Below, in pieces: positions 315 to 50,695 of a DNA stretch of 64,000 nucleotides (positions are counted from its first letter, which is position 1; each line of letters starts with the position of its first letter). Both the position numbers and the translations under genes were made by a program. The notes beneath the pieces are model-generated. The model had not been told where the DNA came from and did not search any database. It saw only the letters and a list, made by a program, of their open reading frames with translations. This DNA is from a virus: the IMG/VR virus record IMGVR_UViG_3300045988_137393; one strand, given 5' to 3'.

Positions 315-2339
315 TTAGTTATAGAATCCCCATTTTTTAGGGCGTTTTGAGACACCGACCATTTTGGTGATGTCAAAGTTGTTTGTACGTTTCTTGTTTC
401 TGATATGATCCATTCGTTTTTCAGATAAATACCATCCAAGCATAGCCAAGACATACGCACGGTCGTCATGCATAGTAGCTTCTGAAGCTCCTGTATCAGC
501 GTCTTTATACGCAGGAAGTTTAAATGAATCCTTACCACCTTCACGCTTATTTCTACAGATATTAACAATTTCCTCTTTCATTGCATCAATCTGAACTAAT
601 GCAACTTCTTCATCAGGTGTTAATTTATATACTTGTGTTTTAGCAGCTTCAATCAATGAAAGTCTTTCTTCCAGCTCATTTTCATATTCATCAATGCTCA
701 AATCCAATTTGTCTAATTCTGCACGAATCTTTTCTTCCGATTCATTCATAAGTTTGATATCAACTTCCATGATATTGAGATAACCTTTGTTATCATATTT
801 TTCTGTGAAATGAATTTTGTCTGCTTCAACCATTTTTATTAAAGCCTCAAACATTTCAGATTTATATTTTGATGGTTCAATTAATTTCAGTTTTTCAACT
901 GCATTAGGGTATCTTTTAGCATACACATCACCATTGTTATATTCCTTATCCAATAAACCACGGTGAACATTACCTTTTTTATCTTTCCAATCTTCAATTA
1001 AACTGTCTCGAACCCAAGAGTTTCCCCCTCCACCAGAACCAGCATCGGCTAAGAAAATTTCAATATTGTCATAATCCAAAGCTTCACCGTTATAATCAAG
1101 AAGTATTTTCCTAATTTCTTTTATCTGGTCTTGAGTCATCATGGGTGTCTTTCTCCTAAGACCTAAATCAGAAAATGACACAACATTTACAATATCCATT
1201 GTGTATCCATCTTCTTCGTTATAAAGTAATTCACCTATACCCAGAATTGAATTGTCGGTTGAACGTGCTGGATCATATGCTAAAACAAATGTTCTTTCAT
1301 TGGTATCATTACATAACACAGGTGGACGAGTGTAAGAATTACGAACAATTAAAGCTCTTTTAATAATCTGGTTCGCATTCCCGTCTTGAGTGAATTTATT
1401 ATAATACTCACGTTGAGCTTTTTCTGGATTATTTCTTAATTCTGTCTCAACGGTTTCTCTATTCAAAAGTGGAACATAAGGTTTGCCATGAAAAGTAGCA
1501 TTAATAACAACATCACAGTTAATATCTGCTACAAAATATTTTGGATCACCTAACATCATTTTCTTGGAAAAATCACGATACTTTTGATAAAAAGCTGTGT
1601 CAATAGAAGAAGCAGAAGAAGCATATAAGAGCTGATGTGGAAATTCCTTTGGAAGAGAAGATATATCAATATTTCCACCAAGTTTGAAATTTGAATCAAG
1701 AGTTGTAAATGCACCAATAACATTAAATTCTTCTTCTGAGAGCCAGCCGCCCTCATCAAAACAGACGCACTCACACCTCTTACCTCTTTTGGCATTGATA
1801 TTACTATTCAATGTTTTTACAAAGCTACCATTATACAACCTATATGTAAATCCCATTGGATTGTGGATAAATCCATTTGAGTTTGCTTGCGATATTTCAA
1901 CTTCATTTTTAAAAACATCTGTAAGACCAGTCATTGATTCAATATTTTTTAATGCAATATCTTCGATCTTCTTAAAAGTTTCTTGGGACTGGTCTGCTGT
2001 TCCTGAACAAATGTACGTTCTGTAGTTGTTGAACAGAAGTCCCTTTATTATGGTAAATAAAGCAAGTAATGTCGTCTTTCCTGCGGCACGACTTTCCAAC
2101 CATAACACAAATGGTTTTGTCCATGAATTCATAAAAGTATATTCTTGTGCATCAAGAAGCTCAACTCCTATAAATTCTTTCATAAATTTTGTCGGGTATT
2201 TAATCCCAAATTGCTTTATTTCCGCTAATTTTTTATATCCTTCCAACTTCCTTTCAGATATTTGAAATTCAGTTGGTTTGACATAAATTTCATAATTTTT
2301 AGGTATCAATATTCCAGATTCAGTAGTCTCAAACGCCAT
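315..2339 (-). CDS. terL: terminase large subunit
   Basis: 674-aa ORF, GAGGAGG RBS; Walker A-like ESRAAGKTTL, Walker B-like CVCFDEGGW, C-terminal nuclease-size half; typical TerL size and position. Confidence 0.85.
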   Translation of the reverse strand: MAFETTESGILIPKNYEIYVKPTEFQISERKLEGYKKLAEIKQFGIKYPTKFMKEFIGVELLDAQEYTFMNSWTKPFVLWLESRAAGKTTLLALFTIIKGLLFNNYRTYICSGTADQSQETFKKIEDIALKNIESMTGLTDVFKNEVEISQANSNGFIHNPMGFTYRLYNGSFVKTLNSNINAKRGKRCECVCFDEGGWLSEEEFNVIGAFTTLDSNFKLGGNIDISSLPKEFPHQLLYASSASSIDTAFYQKYRDFSKKMMLGDPKYFVADINCDVVINATFHGKPYVPLLNRETVETELRNNPEKAQREYYNKFTQDGNANQIIKRALIVRNSYTRPPVLCNDTNERTFVLAYDPARSTDNSILGIGELLYNEEDGYTMDIVNVVSFSDLGLRRKTPMMTQDQIKEIRKILLDYNGEALDYDNIEIFLADAGSGGGGNSWVRDSLIEDWKDKKGNVHRGLLDKEYNNGDVYAKRYPNAVEKLKLIEPSKYKSEMFEALIKMVEADKIHFTEKYDNKGYLNIMEVDIKLMNESEEKIRAELDKLDLSIDEYENELEERLSLIEAAKTQVYKLTPDEEVALVQIDAMKEEIVNICRNKREGGKDSFKLPAYKDADTGASEATMHDDRAYVLAMLGWYLSEKRMDHIRNKKRTNNFDITKMVGVSKRPKKWGFYN

Positions 2340-6252: not shown

Positions 6253-6921
6253 ATGAACACATCATATAAAACAGCAATCAAATTCAAAGACTTATATATT
6301 CCTGTAAAAATGGTCAAAGTATCTCATAATAACTCAATAGAACTTAATCAGCTCTGCAAAGATTCAAAGGAAAGAGTACGTTATATCAAATTTTGCCCAT
6401 CATGCAATAAAGAAATTCACAATGAAGATATTGTGAAAGGATATAGATATGCAGAAGATAAGTATGTTATTTTGGAACAATATGATATAGAATCAATTAC
6501 ATCAAACCAAGATAGAACACTTTCAATAAAATATTTCTGTAAATCAAAGGAAATATCAGACATACTCATAGATAAATCATATTATTTAATTCCTGAAATG
6601 AATTCAGAAATCGAATATGAGCTTTTTCGCAAAGCTATGACTACGAATAGAGTAGTAGGTATTGCTGAAATTGTATTGGGTACAAAACAAGAATTAGTTG
6701 CGTTATTTGCCAATAAGAATTGTATTATTGCAACCATTTTATTTTATGAGAATGAGATTAACGAATTGCCGATTATCATGAAACACAAAATAGATAAACA
6801 ACAACTCGAAAATCTCAAACAAGATATTATAGATAATACAAAAGATTTTAATTGGAATTCACATTATGATAAATATCAACTCAAACTAAGAGAATTAATA
6901 TTTGAAAAAATTCCAAAATGA
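6253..6921 (+). CDS. ku: Ku-family DNA end-binding protein
   Basis: 222 aa; N-terminus YKTAIKFKDLYIPVKMVKV..ELNQLCKD..ERVRYIKFCPSCNKEI..EDIVKGYRY..DKYVIL follows the bacterial Ku (YkoV/Mt-Ku) core pattern; AAGGAG RBS. Confidence 0.8.
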   Translation: MNTSYKTAIKFKDLYIPVKMVKVSHNNSIELNQLCKDSKERVRYIKFCPSCNKEIHNEDIVKGYRYAEDKYVILEQYDIESITSNQDRTLSIKYFCKSKEISDILIDKSYYLIPEMNSEIEYELFRKAMTTNRVVGIAEIVLGTKQELVALFANKNCIIATILFYENEINELPIIMKHKIDKQQLENLKQDIIDNTKDFNWNSHYDKYQLKLRELIFEKIPK

Positions 6922-7690: not shown

Positions 7691-7980
7691 GAATTTGTCC
7701 CCTCGCTTTCGTTTGCAATTATTTGGTTATATGCGTCTTTGAAACTGATTACTAAATCCCTTAAAGTCTCTTTATCAATAGTACAGTCCAAATTGCTCAT
7801 ATCAATATTTGGATTTGATACCGTAAACTCCAATGTATTTCCATTTGGCGCAAATAAAACTTCCACAGATTCATTAAGCAGAAGAGTAATAGAATCAATT
7901 TTATTTCCATTATTCGATGTTACTCGTTTTACTTGCCCAACTTTTAATCTATCATTTTCAATAGATAATCTACTTGCCAT
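7687..7980 (-). CDS. hypothetical protein
   Basis: ORF-track ORF 7687..8088 trimmed to MASRL start (AAAGGAG RBS at 7990s); the longer version runs through tRNA-Met. Confidence 0.7.
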   Translation of the reverse strand: MASRLSIENDRLKVGQVKRVTSNNGNKIDSITLLLNESVEVLFAPNGNTLEFTVSNPNIDMSNLDCTIDKETLRDLVISFKDAYNQIIANESEGTNS

Positions 7981-8031
7981 TATATATACACTCCTTTCTT
8001 TTATTTTTAGTTTTCCTTTTAATCGTTGAGT

Positions 8032-8103
8032 TGCGGAAACAGGACTCGAACCTGCATTCTCTTGGTTATGAGCCAAGTGAGCTTCCATTGCTCGTCATTC
8101 CGC
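8032..8103 (-). tRNA. tRNA-Met/Ile2-type (CAU)
   Basis: Acceptor GCGGAA(T)/(T)TTCCGC, anticodon arm CTTGG-CTCATAA-CCAAG, T arm GCAGG-TTCGAGT-CCTGT; D stem is shifted by one nt relative to canonical numbering. Confidence 0.75.
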
Positions 8104-9026
8104 TATGATAATAGGAGAGGAGCGACCTCCCCATATTATATGTAGATTGGTAAGATCTACTGCCGATTGATTACCAGTCAACCGACAAAGAGAATATTGA
8201 AAATTCTCTGACATGTAATATTATCCAGTTGCAACGCCACATCGGAATTAAACCGAAATCTTCTCTGATATGAGACGCATGTTCAATCATGCTGATGACC
8301 TGGATAATATATTATTCTCCACATATTTTCAGTCTTCGGAGCAAAGACCTCTTGATAAGGTTTAATGACTCTTATCCGTCAATTAAGATTCTCATTAACG
8401 TAGAGAGGCACGAACATCTTCTCATTTCTGAAGGCTGAGATAAACCGATGATCCTAGATGTCGGTAGGAAAGAAATAGGACTTACAATACTACATGAATA
8501 ACAAATGCCAAGTTGATTTTTTCATATTTCAAATGAAACCGTGATGCTGTATCAACCCAATAACGGTTCACTATTTTGTGATTCTTATTGACTAACAGAA
8601 TCACTTTACCTACAACGATTAGAGGTGTTCCACACTTAACGGTGGTGGATTACCATATTTTTTAGTTGTCTACTAAGGCAAGATCTCTCCATAACACCGC
8701 CAATGAGCAGTAAGCAGTGGGAAGTTTTAGACCGTTCCAAAGTCAATAATTTCGCAAACCGACCTTTATATTTATGTCGCATATCGGTCAGCGACAGCTC
8801 ATTTGTAAAAGTCCGTCAACGGATTAACAGACCGCCCTCACTTCTTATGGATGTGAGCAGCTTTGTTATATTTTATTATTCTCTACATTGTCGTCACCTC
8901 TCGGCTCAAATATCACGTTGCTATGCTTTCTTGTTTAAATTAAATTGTTGATGTTGGACGAAAGCTTCATCGGTATCCTCAGTTTCTTCACGAATTATAT
9001 ACATCTGAATGGTTTCGGAAGGATTA
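8104..9026 (-). ncRNA. candidate large structured RNA (a), ~0.9 kb, 5' of tRNA-Met
   Basis: No minus-strand ORF >=60 aa; many perfect helices (8218-8228/8300-8310; 8189-8195/8203-8209; 8578-8585/8597-8604; 8537-8542/8563-8568); helix 8114-8120/8126-8132 is complete only on the minus strand (G.U). Confidence 0.45.
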
Positions 9027-9980
9027 TTAAATTTCAACACTATCTTTTAACTTTCTTACCTTAGAAGTGTCTATTTTAATGTAATATTTTTTTGTGACAT
9101 CCGTTCCAGAATGATTTAACATTGTAGACACATCTTCCAAGCTAACACCTTCATTTTTAAGCAAAGTGGCATAACTATGACGAAAATCATGAGGATGTAA
9201 TGTTGGAACGCCAATCATATTTCCGATCTTTTTACACCAGTCATTTAATGTACCACTTTGAATCGGCTTATTTTCATTGGTGTATGGAGTAATAAATATT
9301 CTTCCGTGGTCATCAATGTTATTATCTTTTCTGTATTGAATTAGTTTCTCAAGATACCCCTTAGTTTCTCTACTAAAACTTAACTCAACAATTTTCCCCT
9401 CTTTTTCAAGCACATTACTACAAATTCTTTCATCAAAATCTACTTGTTCCCATTTTAAACTGCCAATAGCAGTAACTCTTGCCATAGTAGTTAAAGAAAG
9501 AAAAGCATATGCCTGTAACTGAATATCTCCATATTCTTCAAGTTTTTCACGCATTAACTGCACTTGATCTTTTGTAAGATATGTTTGCACAGCGATAGGT
9601 TGACCATTTTTAGGTCTATCAATAAATTCAGTAGGAGATTCTACAATCAATTTTTTCTTACGAAGGAATTTGTAAAATGCAGAAACAGAAGACATAACTC
9701 TTTTTTGTCTTGCAACATTATTCCCTTGTTGTTTCCTCCAATAATAGTATTCTGTGATATCATCCTCTGTTGCTTCCAATACAGATAAATTAAACTGATT
9801 ATCATACATATAAATAAACCATTGTCTTAAATCTATATTGTACGCATTAATAGTATTAACTGATAAATCACGAATAGACATATCTACTTGATACTTTTGA
9901 AACAGTTTTAATGTTTCAGGATTTATATGTTCAAGTTTATCTTCATCATACATTACAATTCTTTTGCTTCGTTCTGCCAT
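9027..9980 (-). CDS. tyrosine recombinase/integrase (XerC/D-like)
   Basis: 317 aa; N-terminal SAM-like core-binding region, C-terminal HPHDFRHSYATLL ... LNHSGTDVTKKYY (H-x-x-R and catalytic Y); start moved to MAERS with GGAAG RBS. Confidence 0.85.
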   Translation of the reverse strand: MAERSKRIVMYDEDKLEHINPETLKLFQKYQVDMSIRDLSVNTINAYNIDLRQWFIYMYDNQFNLSVLEATEDDITEYYYWRKQQGNNVARQKRVMSSVSAFYKFLRKKKLIVESPTEFIDRPKNGQPIAVQTYLTKDQVQLMREKLEEYGDIQLQAYAFLSLTTMARVTAIGSLKWEQVDFDERICSNVLEKEGKIVELSFSRETKGYLEKLIQYRKDNNIDDHGRIFITPYTNENKPIQSGTLNDWCKKIGNMIGVPTLHPHDFRHSYATLLKNEGVSLEDVSTMLNHSGTDVTKKYYIKIDTSKVRKLKDSVEI

Positions 9981-10043
9981 TTTCTCACTTCCTTTCATAA
10001 CAAAAAGAAGCAGTAGTAGTAATAACTAAACTGCTTCATCAAA

Positions 10044-10922
10044 CTATTTTCCATTCTTCATCTGTATATTTTGTATATCTGATACTTTTCTTGGTAATTT
10101 ATATTTATCACACCATTTTCGTATTGTATTGTCTGTAACTTTATACATATCAGCAATATGAGTAAATGGTGTAGATCTTATTAATTTCTTTAAATTATCT
10201 CTTGAAATAATATTATACAATTTTTCTGTATTATATTTTTTGTAACAAATTTCACACATTGTTGATGTTGAATTCATTAAATTTGTTTTGCAATATGGAC
10301 AAAGAATTTTAATCGTTTTATTATTGCGTTTTGTTTTAGCATTCTCTCGTCTATACTTATGTAAGCAAGAAATACATAAGCCACTTTTATTATTTTTACT
10401 AATTTTTGTTCCACATTCTTTACATATCAATTTATTCTTTATTACTCTTTTATAGTTATATACACCAAAATTGTCCGTCATACTATGACAATTAGGACAT
10501 AATATTTGCAAATTTGATAATTCATTATTATCATGATCTCCGTCAATGTGGTGTAATTGCAGTTTAACAGGTTTTCCCATCCATTCAGATATATTACATA
10601 GTTCACATTTATTTTCTTTATATCCAAGTTCAATTAACTTATTTCTTAATTTATGACTTTGTACTTTAGTATTTCTATGTAATTTCGATTCAATATCATA
10701 TTCTGAACATAAAGATTTTTTCGCCATTTGTTGTTTATATACTTTTCTGTTTTCTTCAAATTTAGAAGTATTTAGTTTATATTCATTTATGATTCTTTTT
10801 AACGTATTTGTGCTACTTGATGAATTTATTCCTGCAGCTCTAAGAATTTCTGTGTATGTATTACTTGAATCGAGCAAGCTTTGTAATTGTTCAGGTGAAA
10901 AATTATATAATTTACTCGCCAT
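10044..10922 (-). CDS. HNH homing-type endonuclease with C-terminal HTH
   Basis: LQLHHIDGDHDNNELSNLQILCPNCH HNH motif, several CxxC pairs; start trimmed to MASKL (GGAGG RBS) because the longer ORF overlaps the tRNA-like gene. Confidence 0.85.
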   Translation of the reverse strand: MASKLYNFSPEQLQSLLDSSNTYTEILRAAGINSSSSTNTLKRIINEYKLNTSKFEENRKVYKQQMAKKSLCSEYDIESKLHRNTKVQSHKLRNKLIELGYKENKCELCNISEWMGKPVKLQLHHIDGDHDNNELSNLQILCPNCHSMTDNFGVYNYKRVIKNKLICKECGTKISKNNKSGLCISCLHKYRRENAKTKRNNKTIKILCPYCKTNLMNSTSTMCEICYKKYNTEKLYNIISRDNLKKLIRSTPFTHIADMYKVTDNTIRKWCDKYKLPRKVSDIQNIQMKNGK

Positions 10923-11008
10923 TATATTCCTCCAATCTATTAATTTATTGAAGGTAGAGATAAACTTTATGTTTATAATTCTCTTTATTAATCGAACAGA
11001 TTGACCTA

Positions 11009-11093
11009 GTCCTCCCACTTGGTAACGCTCCAAGCCGATCCGAAGACGACAGATTTACAGTCTGCCCCACATCTTTAGTGGTCTATGAGAGGA
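11009..11093 (-). tRNA. aberrant class-II tRNA-Tyr-like gene (GUA)
   Basis: 7-bp acceptor TCCTCTC/GGGAGGA, anticodon arm GCAGA-CTGTAAA-TCTGT, long variable arm with cUUCGg loop; but T loop AGCGTTA and D loop TAAAGAT lack TPsiC/GG elbow signatures and 3 extra nt precede the D stem. Confidence 0.4.
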
Positions 11094-14099: not shown

Positions 14100-14174
14100 T
14101 TGGAAATGTAGGATTTGAACCCACGACCTCCTGAACCCAAATCAGGCGTTCTAACCAAACTGAACTAATTCCCA
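14100..14174 (-). tRNA. tRNA-Pro (UGG), U1:A72, second copy
   Basis: Acceptor TGGGAAT/ATTTCCA, D arm TAGTTCAGTTTGGTTAGAAC, anticodon arm CCTGA-TTTGGGT-TCAGG, T arm GTGGG-TTCAAAT-CCTAC. Confidence 0.8.
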
Positions 14175-15008
14175 AAATAAAAAATCCCATACCGAAGTAT
14201 GAGATCCTTACTTAATATGAGCTGAGATATTTGACTCAATACACTAACACTTACTGTGGTTGGACACAGTTTATCACACAAGCGATTAGCTTGTAGTTAG
14301 CAACAACACCGATTTTGACATAATCGGCAAACTCTTACCACAAAGTATTATAGATTTTCTTTCTGCACATTCTTCCTTGCGAGATTCATAGGTTGCAGCC
14401 TATTAGAGTTGCACGTACTTGTACTTTCTCATATAACACCTTGCGAGTGCTATATGTCACCATATTACAGGTGAATAAGTTGTTTTTCTCTTTGCGGTCG
14501 CACACACTTTTGCTGTTTTGTAATTTTCTTTTAAATATTATTTACCTAAAATAATTTGATTTCTTTCAAAAGTATGTACTTATTATGGACGATGAGGTGT
14601 ACATTTGATCATCCGTACCTTTTGAGTACAGCCCAATCATCACCATCCTGCTCGGATTGCGATCTCCTTACTTTTTGATTCCATCCCTGTTTTTCAACTT
14701 AAGAGATATTACCAAAATCCTACCAGCGGTTATACTTGCGGTATTCCCACCAATAGTACACAAATCATACCCACATTTCTGTGTTACTACAGTGCCTATT
14801 TCAAGACACCCACCAATCAACCATATTCGCCAACAGTTGTCCTTGAATAGAAGGTTGGGCGTAGATTTTATGTGTTTTCCGTTAAACTGTATTTCACAGT
14901 CGCAGCCTTATAATACGATAAGAACCACTTTATACATGTCGCCATGCTTATTTTTGAGATTTAACATCTCCTGATCCGAAACCAACCAGTCCTACAAAAG
15001 TAGAAAAG
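14175..15008 (-). ncRNA. candidate large structured RNA (b), ~0.83 kb between tRNA-Asn and tRNA-Pro
   Basis: No minus-strand ORF >=60 aa; local hairpins (e.g. CCGATT..AATCGG 14319-14337); CCTTGCGAG (minus: CUC-GCAA-GG, GNRA-type) at 14375 and 14439. Confidence 0.4.
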
Positions 15009-15081
15009 CTCTCCCAGTAAGACTCGAACTTACGACTTTCGCATTAACAGTGCGATGCTCTACCAGCTGAGCTATAAGAGA
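15009..15081 (-). tRNA. tRNA-Asn (GUU)
   Basis: Canonical: acceptor TCTCTTA/TGGGAGA, TAGCTCAGCTGGTAGAGC D arm, anticodon loop CTGTTAA, T loop TTCGAGT. Confidence 0.85.
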
Positions 15082-15756
15082 TTAAGAATTGTCAGTGACC
15101 ATACCACAGGAACTGTAGCACAGCCACCGATCTATAAGAAGAGGAGTACAATATGAATATGTACCAATCTTAGAAATGAACTTTAGAATTGTTCAGAACC
15201 GCCAATGAATTAGTAGCGATGGAATCTCTTAGATTTTATCAGTTCCCCAAATAAGCTGATTATCCGTAGGTTTACCAACCTAACATTAAAATTAGCATTT
15301 ATGGCTGCTTGCACCACATACATTGTCTCTATGGACTTTATTGCCTCAGTATGATACGAGATCTAAATCACTGTTCTGAATTTAATTTGTGTTATATTGT
15401 GTCCGTATAGAACGTTGTTCTAATGTCTTTCGACAATTATATATTCTCTGTTTTATCAGCCAAGAAAAGCTGATTTCATTGTGTTAGCCTTTCGGCACAG
15501 CCCTCAATCAAGAGGGCTTTTATTTTGTAGTAAAACACGTGTTGCATACTTTTATTCCGCATTTGCATATAAGCGGAGAGGATAGTTATGTTGGTATTGT
15601 ACGAAGTACACGCAAATTTACACTGTTATACATTGATAAAGCTTCATTGCCCACTTTCTCCTCATAAGTTCACTTAACTACAATCGTTGAAACCGTTGAT
15701 TTTACTAGCTTTTAGCAACACTAAAGCAATTAAGTCTGTACAAAAACTGTGCATTT
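15082..15756 (-). ncRNA. candidate large structured RNA (c), ~0.67 kb between RNAP-like gene and tRNA-Asn
   Basis: ORF-free; GCC-GAAA-GGC hairpin (minus) next to GCCCTC..GAGGGC stem (15508-15527); shares a ~50-nt module starting CCGCCAATGA (15199) with segment (a) (8697). Confidence 0.4.
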
Positions 15757-18366
15757 TTAACAGTTTTTTGAAAAACATTTTAGCAAATTTGATGAATTTA
15801 TACTGTATAATACCTTCATTAACAATGATTTATTTTTATTAAGGACAGAAGATATTGATTTTTGATTTCGAATTGAACCAGGAAGAATTTTAAAACAACG
15901 ATCAATCATCCAAGAAAACAACCCAAGATAATTCTTAGATATTTTAATTGATTTCACTTCATAAATCATGTCATCAAAATCTTTTCTAAGCAATAAATAA
16001 TCATCATTCTCTGCATCATCGTTTATTTCATATAATTTTAATGAATATTTTGCTATAATTTCCTCAACCTTTCTACAAGTACGAATATTACTTTTCATTT
16101 CATATTTAACAAAAAAATGACTCATTGGCAGAGTTGTATCTGTATTATGAAACTTCATTAAATCCAAATCGTATAAGTAATTCATAGGACATTTTAAACT
16201 TTCGTTTATGTATTTTTCATTAAAACCTCTTTTGATTATTTTCCAAAACGAAGGATAAAGATTTGTTTTAATATCCATATCATCTTTTATTCTTTTGATT
16301 TCACCAGTTAAGTCGATGTCGAATCTTCTCTTTGCGTTATCAATAGCGACTTGAGCCAAAACACTTAATATACATACATAGTCAACATACTTTTGGTCAT
16401 CAAAATTACATGCATATGTTTGAGCTATTTGAGCTAAGTTGCTTGATTCGCCAATATCCAACTGAGATTTTGCTAAATTATTGTCAATTCCAGCATAATC
16501 GTCCATTGATTTACCATATATATTTTTCTCTTTTGGAATGTTATTTTTGATGGTAGGATAATTTTGATAGCATTTTCTCGCATGTTCTACAATATCACAT
16601 TGATTTGTTGTATACCCACTATCGGAATCTTGATCACTTCCATTGTTTCTATCCTGAAAATCTGTACCATTCATATTTACTGCAACGCACTGTTTTCCAA
16701 GGTTAAAATATTTTTCAAGATTTTTATGGTATATATTGTGAAGATATGTAAGATTGTTTTTACTATTAAAAGGACTTCTAAAGAAAGCTAGATATTCACC
16801 ACTATTAAATCTTTCAGTGTAACATTGAATTGTATTGCTTTCAGCAAAAAATGTGTCATCATTATCAACGTCAGACTCATTTCCTGTGGCAGCATATAAA
16901 AGCATTGCATATGGAGATCCAACTATTACTAAATTTTCAGCATTTTGAATAATACGTCCACTTTTCATATTTAACACATATCCTTTAATAATAGCTTTTT
17001 TTCTGTCACGAAAATATGAACTCCTTACAAAATCTGGATTTTGATTACACAAAGCAATTAAAACTTCGTAATCATTTGAAAAGTTTTTATTCTTCTCAAG
17101 ATATTTCAAAAACTCAGAATTGTCTTGTTTGAGTTTATTGATATACTCAACACTTTCCTTTACAACATTTGGCATTATTTTTTCATCAAGAGAGTTTACC
17201 ATTTGGTAGCTCATTCTCTGAACTTCTCCAAGTTTACTTTCATGTGCAGTTTTCACAATACCAAACATACAGCCGTTTTCATAAACTCGATCACACCAAT
17301 ATTCATACGACTTATCAAATTTCAACCATTTCATAGCATTGTCAGTTGTGATCAATTCAATATCCTTAACAAAATGTTCTACTCCAAACATATCTTTTAC
17401 AGTAGCAGAATAGTAATTCTCTCCAAAATAGTCTTTGAAAAATTGCTGGATATTTGTGCTAAAAGCTGCCATTTTACAAAAATGATGTCGTAATAATATA
17501 TATCCATTTCCCCAACTTGGGAAGATACTAGAATCAATTAACGCCTGTCCGTCAAACATCGTGTTCTTCAACTCGTAATTATCAATGTGTTTTGCATAGC
17601 AATGTTTGTTTTCATCTGTCTCAATACTAACTACTTTAGTAAAAAATGATCTATCCACATCTTTTAATATTAAAATATTCTTGGGATTAATTTTGACTTT
17701 ACCAACGACGGCACTGGATATGAGAGGAGCATAAGCACTAATTTCGACTGTAGGAGAATTCCTTTTAGGAAGTCGAATGCCCATATACAAAAATTTAATT
17801 GCTTTTTTATAAAGGCGATCACATATAAACATACACGAGCCTTTTTTTGCTTTTCCTGTACTTCTGTAAAGCATTTTGTAATGAATAGTTTCTCGTTTTA
17901 TGATATCACCGTTTTTCTTTCTGGTAATATATTCAACATTTACACCTTCATTATAAAACAATGTTCTTATTTCTTCTTTTGTGTGTTTGTGATATTTGTC
18001 TTTGTTCTTATTTGCTTCCTGAAATAATTGTGAAAGTTTTTTACGTTTGTTCCTTTTCTTTTGAATCTGACTATTATAGCCATATGATTTTGCAAGCTTA
18101 TATTCAGTTCTCGCATCTCTTGCGACTTTTTGTAAATGTGAAATCTCTTCATCGTAAGAACGAGAACCAAAATTAAATTCCAAACAAATTAAATCTCGTG
18201 TAGATTCTTCTTTCCATACCTTTAATCCATTTTCATTTAAAAAGTCACTAAAAAGGCTATTGGTAAACATCGCATCTTTATACTCATAATGATCTCTGAC
18301 ACCATTATTATACTCATAAAGGGTGCTTGCTTCAATATTCTTTATTTTAATTCCATATTCACTCAT
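15757..18366 (-). CDS. YonO/RdRP-like single-subunit two-barrel RNA polymerase (candidate)
   Basis: 869 aa; LYRSTGKAKKGSCMF and FFRSPFNSKNN...(30 aa)...NGSDQDSDSG resemble the basic-loop and R-x-P...DxDxD metal-site signatures of YonO/cellular RdRP family; size and nearby HU gene recall SPbeta yonN-yonO. Confidence 0.55.
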   Translation of the reverse strand: MSEYGIKIKNIEASTLYEYNNGVRDHYEYKDAMFTNSLFSDFLNENGLKVWKEESTRDLICLEFNFGSRSYDEEISHLQKVARDARTEYKLAKSYGYNSQIQKKRNKRKKLSQLFQEANKNKDKYHKHTKEEIRTLFYNEGVNVEYITRKKNGDIIKRETIHYKMLYRSTGKAKKGSCMFICDRLYKKAIKFLYMGIRLPKRNSPTVEISAYAPLISSAVVGKVKINPKNILILKDVDRSFFTKVVSIETDENKHCYAKHIDNYELKNTMFDGQALIDSSIFPSWGNGYILLRHHFCKMAAFSTNIQQFFKDYFGENYYSATVKDMFGVEHFVKDIELITTDNAMKWLKFDKSYEYWCDRVYENGCMFGIVKTAHESKLGEVQRMSYQMVNSLDEKIMPNVVKESVEYINKLKQDNSEFLKYLEKNKNFSNDYEVLIALCNQNPDFVRSSYFRDRKKAIIKGYVLNMKSGRIIQNAENLVIVGSPYAMLLYAATGNESDVDNDDTFFAESNTIQCYTERFNSGEYLAFFRSPFNSKNNLTYLHNIYHKNLEKYFNLGKQCVAVNMNGTDFQDRNNGSDQDSDSGYTTNQCDIVEHARKCYQNYPTIKNNIPKEKNIYGKSMDDYAGIDNNLAKSQLDIGESSNLAQIAQTYACNFDDQKYVDYVCILSVLAQVAIDNAKRRFDIDLTGEIKRIKDDMDIKTNLYPSFWKIIKRGFNEKYINESLKCPMNYLYDLDLMKFHNTDTTLPMSHFFVKYEMKSNIRTCRKVEEIIAKYSLKLYEINDDAENDDYLLLRKDFDDMIYEVKSIKISKNYLGLFSWMIDRCFKILPGSIRNQKSISSVLNKNKSLLMKVLYSINSSNLLKCFSKNC

Positions 18367-18590: not shown

Positions 18591-18634
18591 ATAAATTTAC
18601 CTCCACTTATATATTCTCCAAATGAAATTTCTAT

Positions 18635-20688: not shown

Positions 20689-20719
20689 TAAAAATTCCTC
20701 CTTTATAGGTGATATTTAT

Positions 20720-20739
20720 TTATTCTCCATCTGAAATTA
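20720..20739. repeat. 20-nt direct repeat copy 1 (TTATTCTCCATCTGAAATTA)
   Basis: Exact match to 21011-21030. Confidence 0.9.
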
Positions 20740-21002
20740 AGTGGAAGAGAACCTTGCGAGCGTTCAGTAAAGTAGGTCTGAACCCCCACCTGTTTGTTTT
20801 ATTTTTGAAATTGGTAGGGGGTGAAACCCACTTTGCCGAACTGAAAGAAGATATATAACATTATTAATAAGATAGACTATTACGCTTGTATTTCGCTTAC
20901 GCTTCATACAAGCTCTTTAATTTTTTGTTTGATTGTTATTGGTTGATTTGGGTACATGGTGTTTTGGATTAATGGTTTCATTTGAGTACATGTGAGATCT
21001 AC

Positions 21003-21413
21003 CTATAGTGTTATTCTCCATCTGAAATTATAATTCTGTTTCAAATTAACGTACTTCTCTGTGAAGATATTATCTACAAAAAATACTGGTAGCTTATCAT
21101 GATACATTTTATAAATTTCTTCACCTGATAAACTTATCCAAAAATTACTACCTATTTGTCTTTGTTTCTGCAATGTTTCGATTTCTTCCTGATATTTACT
21201 ATTTTTAATTATTCCTCCAATTTTTCCACAGATAGTACAGTAACTGCATAATGATGTATGAATACGTTCTTTTTATACGTTACTTTTAAAATTCCATTTA
21301 TATTGAATCAGACATTCTTCATAATGATGTTTGTGCTTTGATTTGCGGTTGCTCTTTGAGATATTACTTTCTGTTGACTTGAGATATTTTGGTATTTCGT
21401 TTTCATGTATCAT
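21003..21413 (-). pseudogene. 137-codon reading frame interrupted by one in-frame TAA (21275-21273)
   Basis: ATG 21413 with AAAGGAGG RBS; 46 codons, TAA, then 89 more codons in the same frame with no internal start until late (..HKHHYEEC..*..CSYCTICGK..). Confidence 0.5.
21011..21030. repeat. 20-nt direct repeat copy 2
   Basis: Exact match to 20720-20739; lies inside the 3' end of the interrupted ORF. Confidence 0.9.
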
Positions 21414-21524
21414 ATTTAATTCCTCCTTTGATGTATTATTCTCTCTTTGTGAAAATGTGATTATTGCACTATTGTTCTTTTGGTAGTAAAATAAATATAT
21501 ATAATTTTAAAGGAGGAATTGTTT

Positions 21525-23118: not shown

Positions 23119-23226
23119 CCACCACCACACAAAACCAACCTATAATTCTATTGTTAAAATTTCACAATAACACACACCATAACCACACTAAAACTACACA
23201 TATTTCACAAAACTATAAAATCTTAT
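23119..23226. other. G-depleted (C/A/T) block on plus strand
   Basis: Single G (23153) in ~107 nt; CCACCACCACACAAAACCAACC... Confidence 0.85.
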
Positions 23227-23229
23227 GAA

Positions 23230-23906
23230 AAAGACTTGAATATCTCACAAAAAAGGACTATTATACAGTTGTCCGAAGGGATAGGACATAAAACAAGTCC
23301 CATTGTTAGCACATCTGTAAAGAGGACACCGAACCTCACTTGACATCATTAGTTAAGATAGAACCTATCCAAGAATGATGTAAAACCTCACGGCTACTTG
23401 TACAGCCATTCCAAAGCGGATTAAAAAAGCTATCATATATAGCAACGTACAGGGCACTTGATAGCAGTTATTAAGAGGTTGAATTGATACCTTAATGAAA
23501 CAATTCAGTAAAGCCACACTATAGCAGGCACGTGAATAGTAGGAACGATAGAAACCTCATTAGTAGTCAAGTGGCTACTAATTACCATTCCGGCGATGTG
23601 TAACCGGCAAGACAGCAACTCATAAACGTATTAAATAATCTTTACAAGTGTATCACTTGTTTTGTGGTAAAAACATTAAATTACATAACAGGTTTATTAT
23701 ACCACATTCAAAGAGGTTGTTTCAACCTAACAAGATTAAATAGTACAATACCGCTTTATATGTCAAGCGTTAAAAGTATGGCAATATGACATAAGTATAG
23801 CAGGGTACGCAAGCTATACAGTGTAATTGTAAATTATTACAATAAGCACATTCCGCACATTACAATAATAAGCCACCAAGTAAACATGAAAAATGTTGAA
23901 TTATCC
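23230..23906 (+). ncRNA. candidate large structured RNA (d), ~0.68 kb
   Basis: No ORF >=60 aa in any frame 23129-24030; many hairpins (23344-23350/23374-23380; 23644-23650/23654-23660; 23713-23718/23722-23727); repeated module AACCTCA-hairpin-CCATTCC (23384/23406 and 23553/23585). Confidence 0.4.
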
Positions 23907-23994
23907 AGTCGCATTGAGCAGGCTCAGTCTACGCTTTTTTAAGCGGTTGTGAATTAAGCACATTTGAGAAGTGGTTCGATTCCACTTGCGACTT
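23907..23994 (+). ncRNA. tRNA-like element 1 (acceptor + canonical T arm, no 7-nt anticodon loop)
   Basis: Acceptor AGTCGCA/TGCGACT, T arm AGTGG-TTCGATT-CCACT, long extra arm TGTG..CACA; the anticodon-position hairpin CGCTT-TTTT-AAGCG has a 4-nt loop; D arm truncated. Confidence 0.5.
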
Positions 23995-24048
23995 TACCAA
24001 AAAAATAATTATATTGCACTCATGCGTTAAATGAGAGAAGGAGACATT

Positions 24049-42995: not shown

Positions 42996-42998
42996 ATA

Positions 42999-43175
42999 AT
43001 GGAACAATGGGATATTACATGCTGTAAATGTGGGAAATTCATTCTAACAGAACAAAAGCAAGATGTGACAGGCAATATAAAATGTGTCAGAGGTAGTTAT
43101 GACAATGGATTCTATAATGGAATTGAGGATCAATTCTATTGTAAAAAATGTGCTGATAAATTAGGATTGAGGTGA
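42999..43175 (+). CDS. small zinc-ribbon protein (58 aa)
   Basis: Hand-translated; CCKCGK...CKKCADK. Confidence 0.5.
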   Translation: MEQWDITCCKCGKFILTEQKQDVTGNIKCVRGSYDNGFYNGIEDQFYCKKCADKLGLR

Positions 43176-43179
43176 TGTA

Positions 43180-43356
43180 ATGTACGAATTTTCAAAAGAG
43201 ATTATCGAAAAAATCAATACAGCAAAATGTCTTACTGTAAAAGAATTAAGGATAACCGAAGTTGCATTAAGAATGTATGAATTAAATGAAGATATTTTAG
43301 ATGAATCTACTGGATTATCGAATAACGATAAATACGAATTAAAATATAAGTGTTAA
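43180..43356 (+). CDS. small hypothetical protein (58 aa)
   Basis: TGAGGTG RBS; hand-translated. Confidence 0.5.
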   Translation: MYEFSKEIIEKINTAKCLTVKELRITEVALRMYELNEDILDESTGLSNNDKYELKYKC

Positions 43357-43396
43357 AATAAATGATTTACTTGGAAGATTAGAAGAGGTGGTATTG
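43357..43396 (+). promoter_or_regulatory. conserved intergenic leader motif copy
   Basis: AAATAAATGATTTACTTGGAAGATTAGAAGAGGTGGTATTG directly before ATG 43397. Confidence 0.45.
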
Positions 43397-43552
43397 ATGG
43401 ATAGAAAACGAAATAATTCTACATGGTGTTGTGATCAAATTGAAGAGAAAATTAAAGATTATAAAATATCTCTTACAGAAATTAAAGAAGAAGAGGTAAA
43501 GAGGCAGCTGAAAATTGTGATTGATGATTTAGAATCAATTCTATACAAGTAG
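43397..43552 (+). CDS. small hypothetical protein (51 aa)
   Basis: Hand-translated ORF after leader motif. Confidence 0.5.
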   Translation: MDRKRNNSTWCCDQIEEKIKDYKISLTEIKEEEVKRQLKIVIDDLESILYK

Positions 43553-43572
43553 ATTAGAGGAGGTGATATAAA

Positions 43573-48359: not shown

Positions 48360-50097
48360 CCTAAAATGAAAAATTAAACCTGTACTTTGACAACTGAAAA
48401 TGGCTATAAAAGGTCTAGTTTACTTTTTCTACAGCCCTTTCCAAGGCATGATATATTGGTTATATCGATTACTATCTGCTGGGAAAGGAGCAGATATGAA
48501 TTATTACAATGCTAGCGGACAAATGGATCTGTCAGATCGAATAGCAATAGAAACTGGGATATGCATCGGGGAGTCATTCAAAAAAATAGCAAAAAGACTT
48601 CGCAGACATCCATCTACTATTGCACATGAAGTTAAAGAAAACAGAACCTTCATTAAAGGTAATTACCCGAATGGAAAAGATTGCCGCATGGCAAGACAAT
48701 TCACAGTAAGGAATTTGTGCGGCTGTGATGAAGAAGCCTGTAATACAAAGTGTAGACTTTGCAGAGGAGTGGATTGTACCAAGGTATGCGATAGATATGT
48801 ATCAGTTGCTTGCCATAAGTTTGATTCGCCTCCGTATGTTTGTAATAACTGTAAGGATAAAAAGCTTTGCAACAAAGATAAGTATATTTACAGTGCGAAA
48901 TTCGCTGATGCAGCTGTAACTCGTCGTAGATCGGAGAGTCGACAAGGAGTTAGACTTTCTGATGAAAAGAAGGAAGAATTGGATGAACTTGTGACTCGAC
49001 TTGTTAAGAAAGGCCAGCCTTTAACACACATATATGCAGAACATGAAAATGAAATGCCAGTGTGTTTGAGAACACTTTATAACTATATCGATGAAGGTGC
49101 CTTATCTATTAAAAACATAGATTTAAGAAGAAAGACAGGCTACAAACCACGAAAGAAAAAGTACAACGATATCAATGGATTTCACTCAATGGAGTATAGA
49201 CAGTGTAGGACATATGAGGATTTTGAGTATGCGATGAAATTCAAATATTCAGAAGATGAAGTAACAGAAATGGATACTGTAAAAGGCGTTAGAGAATCTG
49301 GAAAGCGTTTGCTTACAATGATCTTTAGAAAGAACAACGTAATGCTACTATTCCTGATGCCAGATGGAAAAGCAGAATCCGTAAAAAGGGTTCTGGACTA
49401 TCTCGAGACAGGATTGGGAATAGATGTTTTTAGACGGTTGTTTCCGGTTATATTAACTGACAACGGCAGCGAATTCAAGAAGGTAGATGAGTTAGAACTT
49501 ACGCTGGATGAGGATGGCTTCCTAGTTTATAGAACAAGCCTTTATTACTGTGATCCAATGGCTTCATGGCAAAAAGGGTGTATCGAGAAGAATCATGAAT
49601 TTATTCGTTATGCCGTGCCAAAAGGAAAAAGCTTAAACCCATACACGCAAGAAGATATGACTTTATTAATGAATCATATCAATAGTGTAAAACGTCCTGG
49701 ACTTGGAAATAAAAGTCCATACGAGCTCGTAGAAGAGGATGATGAAGATTTCAAAGCATTAATGTCATTATTAAAAATGCACCTCATCCCGCCAGATGAA
49801 GTGCATTTAATGCCAGATTTATTCGTTAAAAAGTAATTAGACCGAAGCTGCAGATAGTAATCGATTTGTCAATAGGTATTAAATAGACGGGTCGCATTTA
49901 CTTTTGCATAACAAGTAGCCAGCCGTCTGTTAATCATGCAAACAAATATATACCTGCTATCTGGAATGCCTTAATTATAGCATGATATTTGAATTTGAAC
50001 ATCCATTATTAGGGCTTTATTTGACCTTTATTTGACCTCAGAACAGAATTTTGATTATTAGACGTATTTTCAGTTGGGTTTTAGTTTTTCATTCAAG
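48360..50097 (+). mobile_element. IS30-family insertion sequence (~1.74 kb)
   Basis: Imperfect terminal inverted repeats CCTAAAATGAAAAATTAAACC (48360-) vs revcomp of right end CTTGAATGAAAAACTAAAACC (-50097); single transposase ORF; flanked by 14-nt direct repeat. Confidence 0.75.
48496..49836 (+). CDS. IS30-family DDE transposase
   Basis: N-terminal HTH (ESFKKIAKRLRRHPSTIAHEV), DDE core with LTDNGSEF and YYCDPMASWQKGCIEKNHEFIRY (IS30-type SWQ+G..EN box); GGAAAGGAG RBS at ATG 48496. Confidence 0.8.
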   Translation: MNYYNASGQMDLSDRIAIETGICIGESFKKIAKRLRRHPSTIAHEVKENRTFIKGNYPNGKDCRMARQFTVRNLCGCDEEACNTKCRLCRGVDCTKVCDRYVSVACHKFDSPPYVCNNCKDKKLCNKDKYIYSAKFADAAVTRRRSESRQGVRLSDEKKEELDELVTRLVKKGQPLTHIYAEHENEMPVCLRTLYNYIDEGALSIKNIDLRRKTGYKPRKKKYNDINGFHSMEYRQCRTYEDFEYAMKFKYSEDEVTEMDTVKGVRESGKRLLTMIFRKNNVMLLFLMPDGKAESVKRVLDYLETGLGIDVFRRLFPVILTDNGSEFKKVDELELTLDEDGFLVYRTSLYYCDPMASWQKGCIEKNHEFIRYAVPKGKSLNPYTQEDMTLLMNHINSVKRPGLGNKSPYELVEEDDEDFKALMSLLKMHLIPPDEVHLMPDLFVKK

Positions 50098-50111
50098 GCA
50101 AACATGAACAA
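50098..50111. repeat. 14-nt direct repeat flanking IS (right)
   Basis: GCAAACATGAACAA. Confidence 0.85.
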
Positions 50112-50138
50112 GAAATCGAACAAACGTTTGCTTTACAC

Positions 50139-50167
50139 TTGACACAAACACATGTTTGGACTATGAT
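50139..50167 (+). promoter_or_regulatory. sigma-A-type promoter overlapped by CAAAC-type palindromes
   Basis: TTGACA (50139-44), 17-nt spacer, TATGAT (50162-67); palindromes CAAACGTTTG (50121-30) and CAAACAcaTGTTTG (50145-58). Confidence 0.6.
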
Positions 50168-50364
50168 TATTGTTGTAAGAGAAATAATGGAAATAAAAAA
50201 CAGTCCGAATGACGTGGCTGCAACCACATATGTCACTCAGACTGTAACTCAACCAACCAAGATTAAGTCATTACATATTTTGGCATAATTTTCCAGTTAT
50301 GTCAAGTTCAGTATGGCTAAAATCATAGCCTATTTCCAATATTTTATCAAAATTTAATATTTAT

Positions 50365-50437
50365 AGGGCATTCGCCAAGCGGAGAAGGCATTGCACTTTG
50401 ATTGCAAAATTCATCAGTTCGAATCTGATATGCCCTG
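50365..50437 (+). tRNA. tRNA-Gln (UUG)
   Basis: Acceptor AGGGCAT/ATGCCCT, D arm TCGCCAAGCGGAGAAGGC, anticodon arm TTGCA-CTTTGAT-TGCAA, T arm ATCAG-TTCGAAT-CTGAT. Confidence 0.85.
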
Positions 50438-50596
50438 CTTTGTGACATTCCACCCGGTATGTTACAGAACGCAAGAGATTTCCTTGTAAGAGCAAAATGT
50501 GTAGTTGCTAAAGTTCTACCATAGTTTAATCCACTAACGGATTACAAGCTGATACTATAGAACTTCCTGATAAACTTGCGATAGTGTCAGCTACTT
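50438..50596 (+). ncRNA. structured spacer between tRNA-Gln and tRNA-Met
   Basis: 7-bp closing helix GTAGTTG/CAGCTAC, inner helices GTTCTA..TAGAAC and TAATCC-ACTAAC-GGATTA; no T-loop signature. Confidence 0.3.
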
Positions 50597-50670
50597 GGAT
50601 CATTAGCACAATTGGTTAGTGCATTCGGCTCATAACCGAAAGGCTCAGAGTTCAAGTCTCTGATGATCCA
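50597..50670 (+). tRNA. tRNA-Met/Ile2-type (CAU), second copy
   Basis: Fully canonical fold: GGATCAT/ATGATCC, TAGCACAATTGGTTAGTGC, TTCGG-CTCATAA-CCGAA, CAGAG-TTCAAGT-CTCTG. Confidence 0.85.
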
Positions 50671-50695
50671 TTGCTAAATCAAACAAAGAGAGGAG

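Follow-up and report, generated by a model that had tools for sequence, protein, structure and literature searches.

A non-coding segment of about 0.9 kb (8105-9026) was analyzed in the virus record IMGVR_UViG_3300045988_137393. The whole stretch of 64,000 nt that was available is referred to here as the window, and all coordinates are positions in it unless a locus is named. The segment is flanked by a tyrosine recombinase gene (9027-9998(-)) and a tRNA-Met gene (8030-8104(-)), and all three are located on the minus strand, which is the strand under study. Comparison with related phages divides the segment into the modules A1, A2, U, B, C, D and E, listed here in the direction of the minus strand together with the neighbouring genes.

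9027-9998, minus strand: XerC/D-type tyrosine recombinase of 323 aa, the upstream neighbour (Pfam Phage_integrase 4e-23 and Phage_int_SAM_1 8e-9)
8947-9026, minus strand: A1, junction just 3' of the recombinase stop (85-95% identity, 44 of 85 loci; it also follows an unrelated integrase type)
8870-8898, minus strand: promoter-like GTGACG-16-TAAAAT in the conserved 20-mer GGTGACGACAATGTAGAGAA (9 of 12 positions match the sigma-70 consensus)
8806-8861, minus strand: 5' unit of A2, a hairpin (8834-8861) followed by a terminator-like 10-bp hairpin (8810-8833) and a U run (8806-8809), as predicted by folding
8667-8805, minus strand: 3' part of A2, with several hairpins, e.g. GUCGC...GCGAC, seen by covariation
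8522-8666, minus strand: U, a lineage-specific insertion holding the hairpins 8537-8568 and 8578-8604 (folding z score -1.3)
8381-8522, minus strand: B, the module with the widest distribution and the highest conservation, made up of a 5' block of about 35 nt (CTTGGCATTTGYTATTCATGTAGYATTGTAAG), an exchangeable middle and a 3' block (TCTCTNCNTTAATGAGAA)
8311-8381, minus strand: C, a small hairpin and a possible pseudoknot element (weak covariation)
8212-8311, minus strand: D, a degenerate tRNA-like cloverleaf (8233-8301) clamped by an 11-bp helix 8218-8228/8300-8310 (z score -2.5)
8105-8212, minus strand: E, a run of four hairpins (8189-8209 and 8114-8132 among them) that stops 10 nt short of tRNA-Met (z score -5.65)
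8030-8104, minus strand: tRNA-Met (CAU), the first tRNA of the array that the putative leader would enter (ARAGORN; Rfam tRNA 49.1 bits)

An earlier reading of this DNA by its letters alone (the sequence-only reading) had reported that the segment holds no minus-strand open reading frame (ORF) of 60 aa or more. This holds, as the longest one comprises 48 aa. The longest ORF on the plus strand comprises 82 aa and is not retained in the related loci L003 and L060 despite 97% identity. Several TAA stops occur in each of the six frames, and the homologues of the segment are separated from each other by 1-nt indels. Because of these stops, the loss of the 82-aa ORF and the single-base indels, the segment is non-coding. 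No open frame is conserved among the homologues, recoded frames included; a conserved ORF, which the sequence-only reading had named as evidence that would speak against its own proposal, is thus absent. Reassignment of TAG or TGA as the cause of the ORF gap was ruled out by the TAA stops in all frames. The claim of a coding density of about 95% elsewhere in this phage was too high: ORFs of at least 60 aa account for 83% of the window, and they are missing from seven other stretches of 460-900 nt, several of which flank tRNAs. Internal repeats or MITE-like (miniature inverted-repeat transposable element) copies of the segment were not found elsewhere in the window.

Among GenBank phages, blastn and megablast searches revealed tRNA matches only and no relative of the segment. 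In IMG/VR, 69 loci carry a homologue of the recombinase at 60-100% aa identity, and 13 of these 69 share non-coding DNA with the segment in a piecewise manner. Searches with nhmmer profiles for more diverged copies in the other 56 loci gave nothing except a weak match in L030. An 18-mer from the 3' block of B (TCTCTNCNTTAATGAGAA) led to at least 116 further viral contigs in IMG/VR, with lengths of 80-210 kb. A scan of genome_contigs with a 16-base core of B returned 120 stretches, none of which is truly similar to any module, and these were discarded as chance matches. All module counts given here refer to the matches listed, with 85 loci (B with both flanks) used for module presence and 99 loci (B with enough flank) used for the distance to the tRNA genes.

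The order A1-A2-U-B-C-D-E-tRNA and the strand are always kept in these loci, and each module can be absent independently of the others. Of the 85 loci, C is found in 56, A2 (8667-8906 in the window) in 48 and A1 in 44; D, E and U are rarer, with 17, 12 and 4 loci, respectively. A tRNA gene follows on the same strand in 98 of the 99 loci, at a median distance of 363 nt from B (95 within 700 nt), and in none of them on the opposite strand. The identity of this first tRNA is variable (Glu, Met, Asp, Asn, Gln and others). In L048, a ribosome-binding site and an ATG come immediately after A2. Known orphan RNA motifs use the same insertion points as the unnamed modules: in L139 (3180-3287(-)) and L121 (995-1101(-)), drum (RF02958) separates B from C and shares their strand, and FuFi-1 (RF02986) adjoins A2 in L139 (4403-4572(+)). 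Since the modules are gained and lost independently, the middle of B is swapped and drum is inserted between B and C, the comparison argues for an island of separable modules in front of a tRNA array and not for a single folded RNA of 0.9 kb.

Several of the modules show conserved pairing. In A2 (21 sequences), 97.8% of the alignment cells pair and five pairs are changed on both sides, a number which is reached by 0 of 500 shuffles, while slid controls gave 0-2. The helix in columns 36-59 is 99.5% paired and alternates between G.U, G-C and A-U, with one double change, and double changes are also present in the 5' hairpin. The terminator-like hairpin (8806-8833) has a conserved, covarying stem of 10 bp, which is followed by UUUU in the window and by UUUUU in most relatives. 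Columns 77/90 form A-U in 11 sequences and G-C in 9, so that the hairpin occurs in the forms GUCGC/GCGAC and GUCAC/GUGAC. Upstream of the A2 hairpins, the 20-mer with the promoter-like site occurs once in the window, and the relatives conserve it ahead of either A2 or B; by its consensus match, the site at 8870-8898 may act as a promoter. The adjoining A1 is possibly a recombination breakpoint or a coding remnant. In other relatives (loci L074-L184), an unrelated tyrosine recombinase (about 27% identity) occupies the same slot. As two unrelated recombinases share this slot while A1 stays 85-95% identical, the recombinase gene must have been exchanged as a cassette.

For E, 0 of 200 shuffles fold as well as the native sequence. 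Among 11 sequences of this module, 97.7% of the cells are paired and four pairs are changed on both sides, which 7 of 500 shuffles reach. E precedes tRNA-Gln or tRNA-Arg in some relatives. In C, a 4-bp helix UGAC/GUCA is replaced by UGUC/GACA in 6 of 30 sequences, and a candidate pseudoknot helix is 97% paired with changes of the G.U type only; over the whole module, three pairs show double changes, a number matched by 69 of 500 shuffles. U was found only in L001, L003, L060 and L157 among the matches listed.

D resembles a tRNA but does not qualify as one. It was called by ARAGORN only at the relaxed setting -ps85 and with an anticodon loop of 6 nt; it neither reaches 29 bits with the Rfam tRNA model nor has a 7-nt anticodon loop or the T-loop and D-loop consensus, and at E<=10 Rfam finds no tRNA besides tRNA-Met. 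The T-loop of the window copy reads UUUAAUU, and both loop consensus sequences are lost. In the relatives, D keeps the T-loop UUCGA and the GG of the D-loop, and the copy in L051 (8748-8820) has a 7-nt loop and is called as tRNA-Tyr(AUA) by ARAGORN, at a score below the Rfam tRNA threshold. This comparison shows D as a decayed tRNA look-alike of tRNA ancestry. No other module is tRNA-like according to relaxed ARAGORN and Rfam at E<=10.

The individual helices named by the sequence-only reading are present. The long-range helix 8218-8228/8300-8310 is a perfect 11-bp pairing; hairpin 8189-8209 pairs at 9 of 10 positions (8189-8198/8200-8209), hairpin 8537-8568 at 8 of 11 (8537-8547/8558-8568) and hairpin 8578-8604 at 9 of 11 (8578-8588/8594-8604). 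Helix 8114-8120/8126-8132 has six Watson-Crick pairs of seven, and the seventh is a G.U pair on the minus strand only. The description of the segment as helix-dense applies to E (8105-8212, z score -5.65) and D (8212-8316, -2.5), but not to A2, U and C (-0.95 to -1.9) or to B (+1.3); the segment as a whole has a folding z score of -2.2 on both strands. The proposed minus-strand polarity, the same as that of tRNA-Met, is supported, with G.U pairs making up 7-18% of the paired cells. When the opposite strand is read, the 98% pairing of A2 drops to 80% and the 98% pairing of E to 88%, in structures that had been derived on the minus strand. Because the changes in the A2, C and E hairpins are compensatory and compatible with G.U pairing, we read the minus strand as RNA, and the alignments support a conservation of A2, C and E as minus-strand RNA structure. 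The lack of compensatory changes, which had been named in advance as a further argument against a structured RNA, thus does not apply to these three modules; in B none of the changes was convincing, and U is lineage-specific.

B behaves differently from the other modules. Its 64 unique sequences contain three alternative middle domains between near-invariant 5' and 3' blocks, and its identity is 92-94% in comparisons in which the recombinase gene reaches 77%; C shows the same level. RNAalifold and an exhaustive helix search found no covarying fold for B, only one-sided wobble variation and many competing helices, and B folds worse than its own shuffles (z score +1.3). It contains a sigma-70-like TTGGCA-16-TATTGT at 8511-8484(-). 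B may act through its sequence, either as DNA or as unstructured RNA. A second motif, RGAGAATAWATAAK, is found in the relatives at the junctions that precede A2 and B and at the one that follows C. In the window it is found at 15436-15449(-), upstream of the tRNA-Asn/GOLLD cluster, and at 18606-18619(-), upstream of a YonO-like polymerase gene (2 matches observed, 0.21 expected). It is possible that RGAGAATAWATAAK represents a phage promoter motif.

For comparison with known RNA families, the Rfam 15 library (4227 families) was run over the whole window at the gathering threshold and over 7900-9300 at E<=10. In the latter region, nothing was found beyond tRNA-Met and chance snoRNA matches: there is no match to GOLLD, ROOL, OLE, HEARO, raiA, introns, RNase P or tmRNA, and none to the drum, FuFi-1 and DUF3800 motifs. 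The suggestion that the segment might be GOLLD or ROOL therefore did not survive the covariance-model search that had been proposed for it, as 8105-9026 has no match at E<=10. A group I intron or a split tRNA was rejected as well, as Rfam gave no match, the intron mode of ARAGORN was negative and the flanks are not exons.

The mention of GOLLD was nevertheless appropriate for this phage, at another locus. A GOLLD-like RNA is located at 14219-14648(-), about 5 kb from the segment, between tRNA-Asn (15008-15081) and tRNA-Pro (14100-14174). It matches the full-length RF02032 model with 104.5 bits (E = 9e-28); the gathering score is 150, and the element was therefore missed by the default scan. 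The ORF-free gap at this position (14175-15007, about 830 nt) matches a complete GOLLD RNA in size. Because the same library finds this element, its null result at 8105-9026 is informative. In L002, a GOLLD above the threshold (1221-1695(+), 166.7 bits) lies 5' of tRNA-Ile(UAU) (1742-1816). The recombinase of L002 is 100% identical to that of the window while the sequences at the GOLLD position differ (15082..14228 in the window, 746..1686 in L002), so that the two phages have divergent versions of GOLLD at this locus. The segment resembles GOLLD (RF02032) in being phage-borne, ORF-free, several hundred nt long and immediately 5' of a tRNA on the same strand, and it abuts tRNA-Met in the way GOLLD adjoins tRNA genes in phages, in a phage family which also contains GOLLD itself. 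It differs from GOLLD in that it has no model similarity at E<=10 and no supported multi-stem junctions or long-range pairs, and in that its modules are separable. ROOL is known from large non-coding regions near tRNAs in phages and prophages of Firmicutes (PMC5737381). The segment is likewise large, non-coding and near a phage tRNA, but only its local hairpins are supported by covariation and the ROOL model does not match. Weinberg et al. considered it possible that GOLLD and ROOL are co-transcribed with tRNAs (PMC5737381).

Drum, FuFi-1 and the DUF3800-type motifs are small conserved structured orphan RNAs which have their own 3' terminators and occur in phage contexts (PMC5737381). The 5' unit of A2 shares this layout of a hairpin plus a terminator. 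In contrast to these motifs, the modules described here are unnamed, have no model match and are known from one phage lineage. Since none of them matches an Rfam family, the modules are new motifs; their kind is known, namely orphan structured RNAs clustered with phage tRNA genes, and the segment is part of the non-coding RNA landscape beside the tRNAs of a large phage of the Firmicutes type.

The neighbouring genes belong to Pfam families named after SPbeta (YonG, YonJ, YonD, YonB, YomW and YomU). An 869-aa protein (15757-18366(-)) carries the NCBI name RNA-dependent RNA polymerase, shows faint Pfam RdRP matches and is YonO-like. The XerC/D recombinase of Clostridium phage c-st is the nearest to that of the window (56% identity), and that of phiCD211-like phages is 39% identical. 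Because of the Yon/Yom families and the YonO-like polymerase, the gene content places the virus, as a member of an uncultured gut phage lineage, close to the group of SPbeta, c-st and phiCD211. A Ku homologue is also encoded (6253-6921(+)).

In SPbeta, the late operon, which is transcribed by YonO, starts with an unannotated non-coding RNA, and the YonO start site is located in a non-coding gap (Forrest et al. 2017, PMC5467207). In SPBc2 (L318) we found this gap as an unannotated, ORF-poor stretch of 1,681 nt between yonN and yonK (9154-10834(-)), in which the two published primers for P(YonO) flank the start site. The gap holds the Rfam motif DUF3800-VIII (9410-9475, 47.5 bits) as well as a helix GAUAAUAG/CUAUUAUC, which is replaced by GCUAAUAU/AUAUUAGC in phage SPbetaL4 and covaries among Bacillus phages. 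Both phages are thus of a related type and have a long ORF-poor gap between early and structural or late genes on the strand of the late genes, the segment in the window having the equivalent position in front of the YonG and terminase genes. They differ in gene order, and no tRNA array is located at the SPbeta gap. Homology to the yonN-yonK gap element was not detected by nhmmer, which gave a non-significant E = 0.05 over a 19-nt stretch only. A relationship of C to this late-leader element was considered because of a 15-nt match and a similar helix; it was dropped, as the covariance model of C has no hit there, and the likeness is kept as an analogy of position.

The explanation we favour, with somewhat guarded confidence, is that the segment forms the non-coding 5' leader of a tRNA and late-gene unit and is built as a chain of small RNA modules which evolve separately. 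Transcription of the minus strand would enter by read-through from the recombinase gene or start at the promoter-like site 8898-8870. In the first ~55 nt of A2 (8806-8861), the hairpin followed by the terminator-like hairpin could give rise to a short small RNA or serve as an attenuator. Transcripts which read through, or which are initiated beyond this unit (possibly at the conserved 5' block of B, which is unstructured), would cross B, C, D and E and run into tRNA-Met. RNase P would next cut the transcript at the 5' end of tRNA-Met, and perhaps also at D, setting free structured parts of the leader. Such pieces might act in trans and would be comparable to drum, FuFi-1 and GOLLD, the orphan phage RNAs that occupy this place in relatives.

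Several results speak against this explanation or limit it. B, the best conserved block, has no support for an RNA structure, and part of the segment may act as DNA. The promoter scan gave no more sites than shuffled sequences yield, and a terminator scan requiring 5 T in 8 did not list the A2 hairpin, which has 4 U in the window; promoters, terminator function and processing sites all depend on matches at the level of a consensus. Moreover, the homologues come from one phage lineage with mosaic genomes and are mostly at least 80% identical, and their high identity may partly result from recent exchange. The covariation comprises few independent events, and relatedness alone can exceed the shuffle control.

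A single RNA, as proposed by the sequence-only reading, would be a new giant ornate RNA of about 0.7-0.9 kb, functionally akin to GOLLD or ROOL, with the modules as its domains and the variability as swapping of peripheral domains. The constant order and strand beside tRNAs in a phage family carrying GOLLD would suit it, and so would the presence of several domains with conserved pairing; conserved blocks split by variable insertions are also typical of large RNAs. However, the helices with support are all local and no long-range pairing covaries, the only enclosing helix of A2 (4 bp) being one that never does. Nor do the domains co-occur as in a large RNA: B is found without A2 or C, A2 directly before a protein gene, and drum, an independent Rfam family with its own terminator (PMC5737381), is inserted between B and C in relatives. 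In addition, a terminator-like hairpin and a decayed tRNA-like element lie inside the supposed molecule, its core block B is not stably folded and it has no Rfam match. We therefore regard one giant RNA as very improbable. An origin of the segment as largely functionless spacer, made of decaying tRNA genes and of fragments inserted or exchanged in a recombination-prone tRNA island and similar only through recent exchange, is improbable as well. The decay of D, whose window copy lost the loop consensus kept by its relatives, the private insertion U, the free loss of modules and the strongly mosaic genomes, in which patches of more than 90% identity occur elsewhere too, would all fit. Decay and exchange do not explain that B and C are better conserved than the adjacent recombinase gene, that the B blocks are nearly invariant across the 64 unique sequences while the middle is swapped, or that helices are kept by compensatory changes, and no module apart from D is tRNA-like.

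The conserved blocks could also be mainly DNA, such as a promoter or operator for the tRNA and late genes (used by host sigma-A or a YonO-like polymerase), a resolution or attachment site of the recombinase, or an origin, with the hairpins being terminators or incidental. We find this unlikely for the segment and plausible for B only, which is extremely conserved, unstructured and without covariation, contains TTGGCA-16-TATTGT, is single-copy and always lies 200-700 nt upstream of the tRNA array. Further arguments in its favour are the YonO start site in the analogous non-coding gap of SPbeta (PMC5467207), the adjoining recombinase gene, and RGAGAATAWATAAK at the module junctions and upstream of two other minus-strand units (15436 and 18606). 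DNA sites would not, however, be expected to show the strand-specific G.U pairs and compensatory changes of A2, C and E. A target site of the recombinase should be obligately adjacent to its gene and contain inverted core repeats, but a recombinase is found within 3 kb in only 27 of the 85 loci with B, the region is absent from phage c-st, whose recombinase is the closest, and no dif- or lox-like inverted repeat is present in the segment. In a contig of 259 kb, both recombinase and gap are internal, with phage genes on both sides, which together with the adjacency counts and c-st makes an attP beside the recombinase unlikely. A role of B as DNA is compatible with the favoured leader of separate RNA modules and does not exclude it. 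Integron-like tRNA cassettes were also considered and rejected: the tRNAs of the arrays are separated by 1-5 nt, too little for attC-like sites, and many loci lack the recombinase.

A more specific version of the modular leader can be put forward only tentatively and is, as a whole, doubtful. In this version, A2-B-C-(D)-E would be a polycistronic precursor of several undescribed small structured RNAs, among them a non-decoding tRNA-like RNA (with the 6-nt anticodon loop and the clamp helix), and B would be a recognition element (a promoter or loading site) dedicating the precursor and the tRNA array to the YonO-like RNA polymerase of the phage. If this were true, it would represent a new "tRNA-island leader" system in SPbeta/c-st-like gut phages, alongside GOLLD.

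The tRNA cluster of phage T4 encodes the stable RNAs species 1 and 2, which are co-processed with the tRNAs and whose function is unknown. In phage K, abundant long non-coding RNAs adjoin tRNAs (PMC9241854). The segment shares with both systems the location of non-coding RNAs with phage tRNA genes; it differs in that the RNAs of T4 and phage K were detected experimentally, while the segment is known from sequence only. Large phages of gut Firmicutes keep unexplained RNAs (GOLLD, ROOL, drum and FuFi-1) beside their tRNA genes, and the role of these RNAs is a long-standing question. Here, one abundant human-gut phage lineage, with at least 116 IMG/VR contigs, has a defined collinear island before its tRNA array, in which known motifs and at least four unnamed conserved modules are exchanged at fixed junctions. 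The presence and absence variants in otherwise near-identical phages form a natural comparative system. Concrete elements such as the unstructured, near-invariant B, the clamped tRNA-like D and the four-hairpin E bear on the transcription and processing of phage tRNA arrays.

Some further observations concern the surroundings of the segment. Directly upstream of the recombinase, an HNH endonuclease gene (10044-11033(-)) has a G+C content of about 25%, compared with 32-40% around it, and other genes are located at its position in relatives; it has the appearance of a mobile insertion. ORFs of at least 60 aa are also lacking from stretches of 580-860 nt at 14975-15756, 20689-21518, 42996-43572 and 49837-50695, some of which flank tRNAs (tRNA-Asn, and tRNA-Gln and tRNA-Met at 50365-50671). 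Within the ORF-free stretch 23129-24030, ARAGORN called an 88-nt "tRNA-???" with a 2-nt anticodon at 23907-23994(+), where Rfam makes no tRNA call; this may be a second tRNA-like or degenerate element. Among the relatives, L066 (9131-9215) and also L103, L111 and L170 contain, within their tRNA arrays, an 85-nt tRNA with the anticodon UUA, called "tRNA-Stop" by ARAGORN, which is possibly an ochre suppressor.

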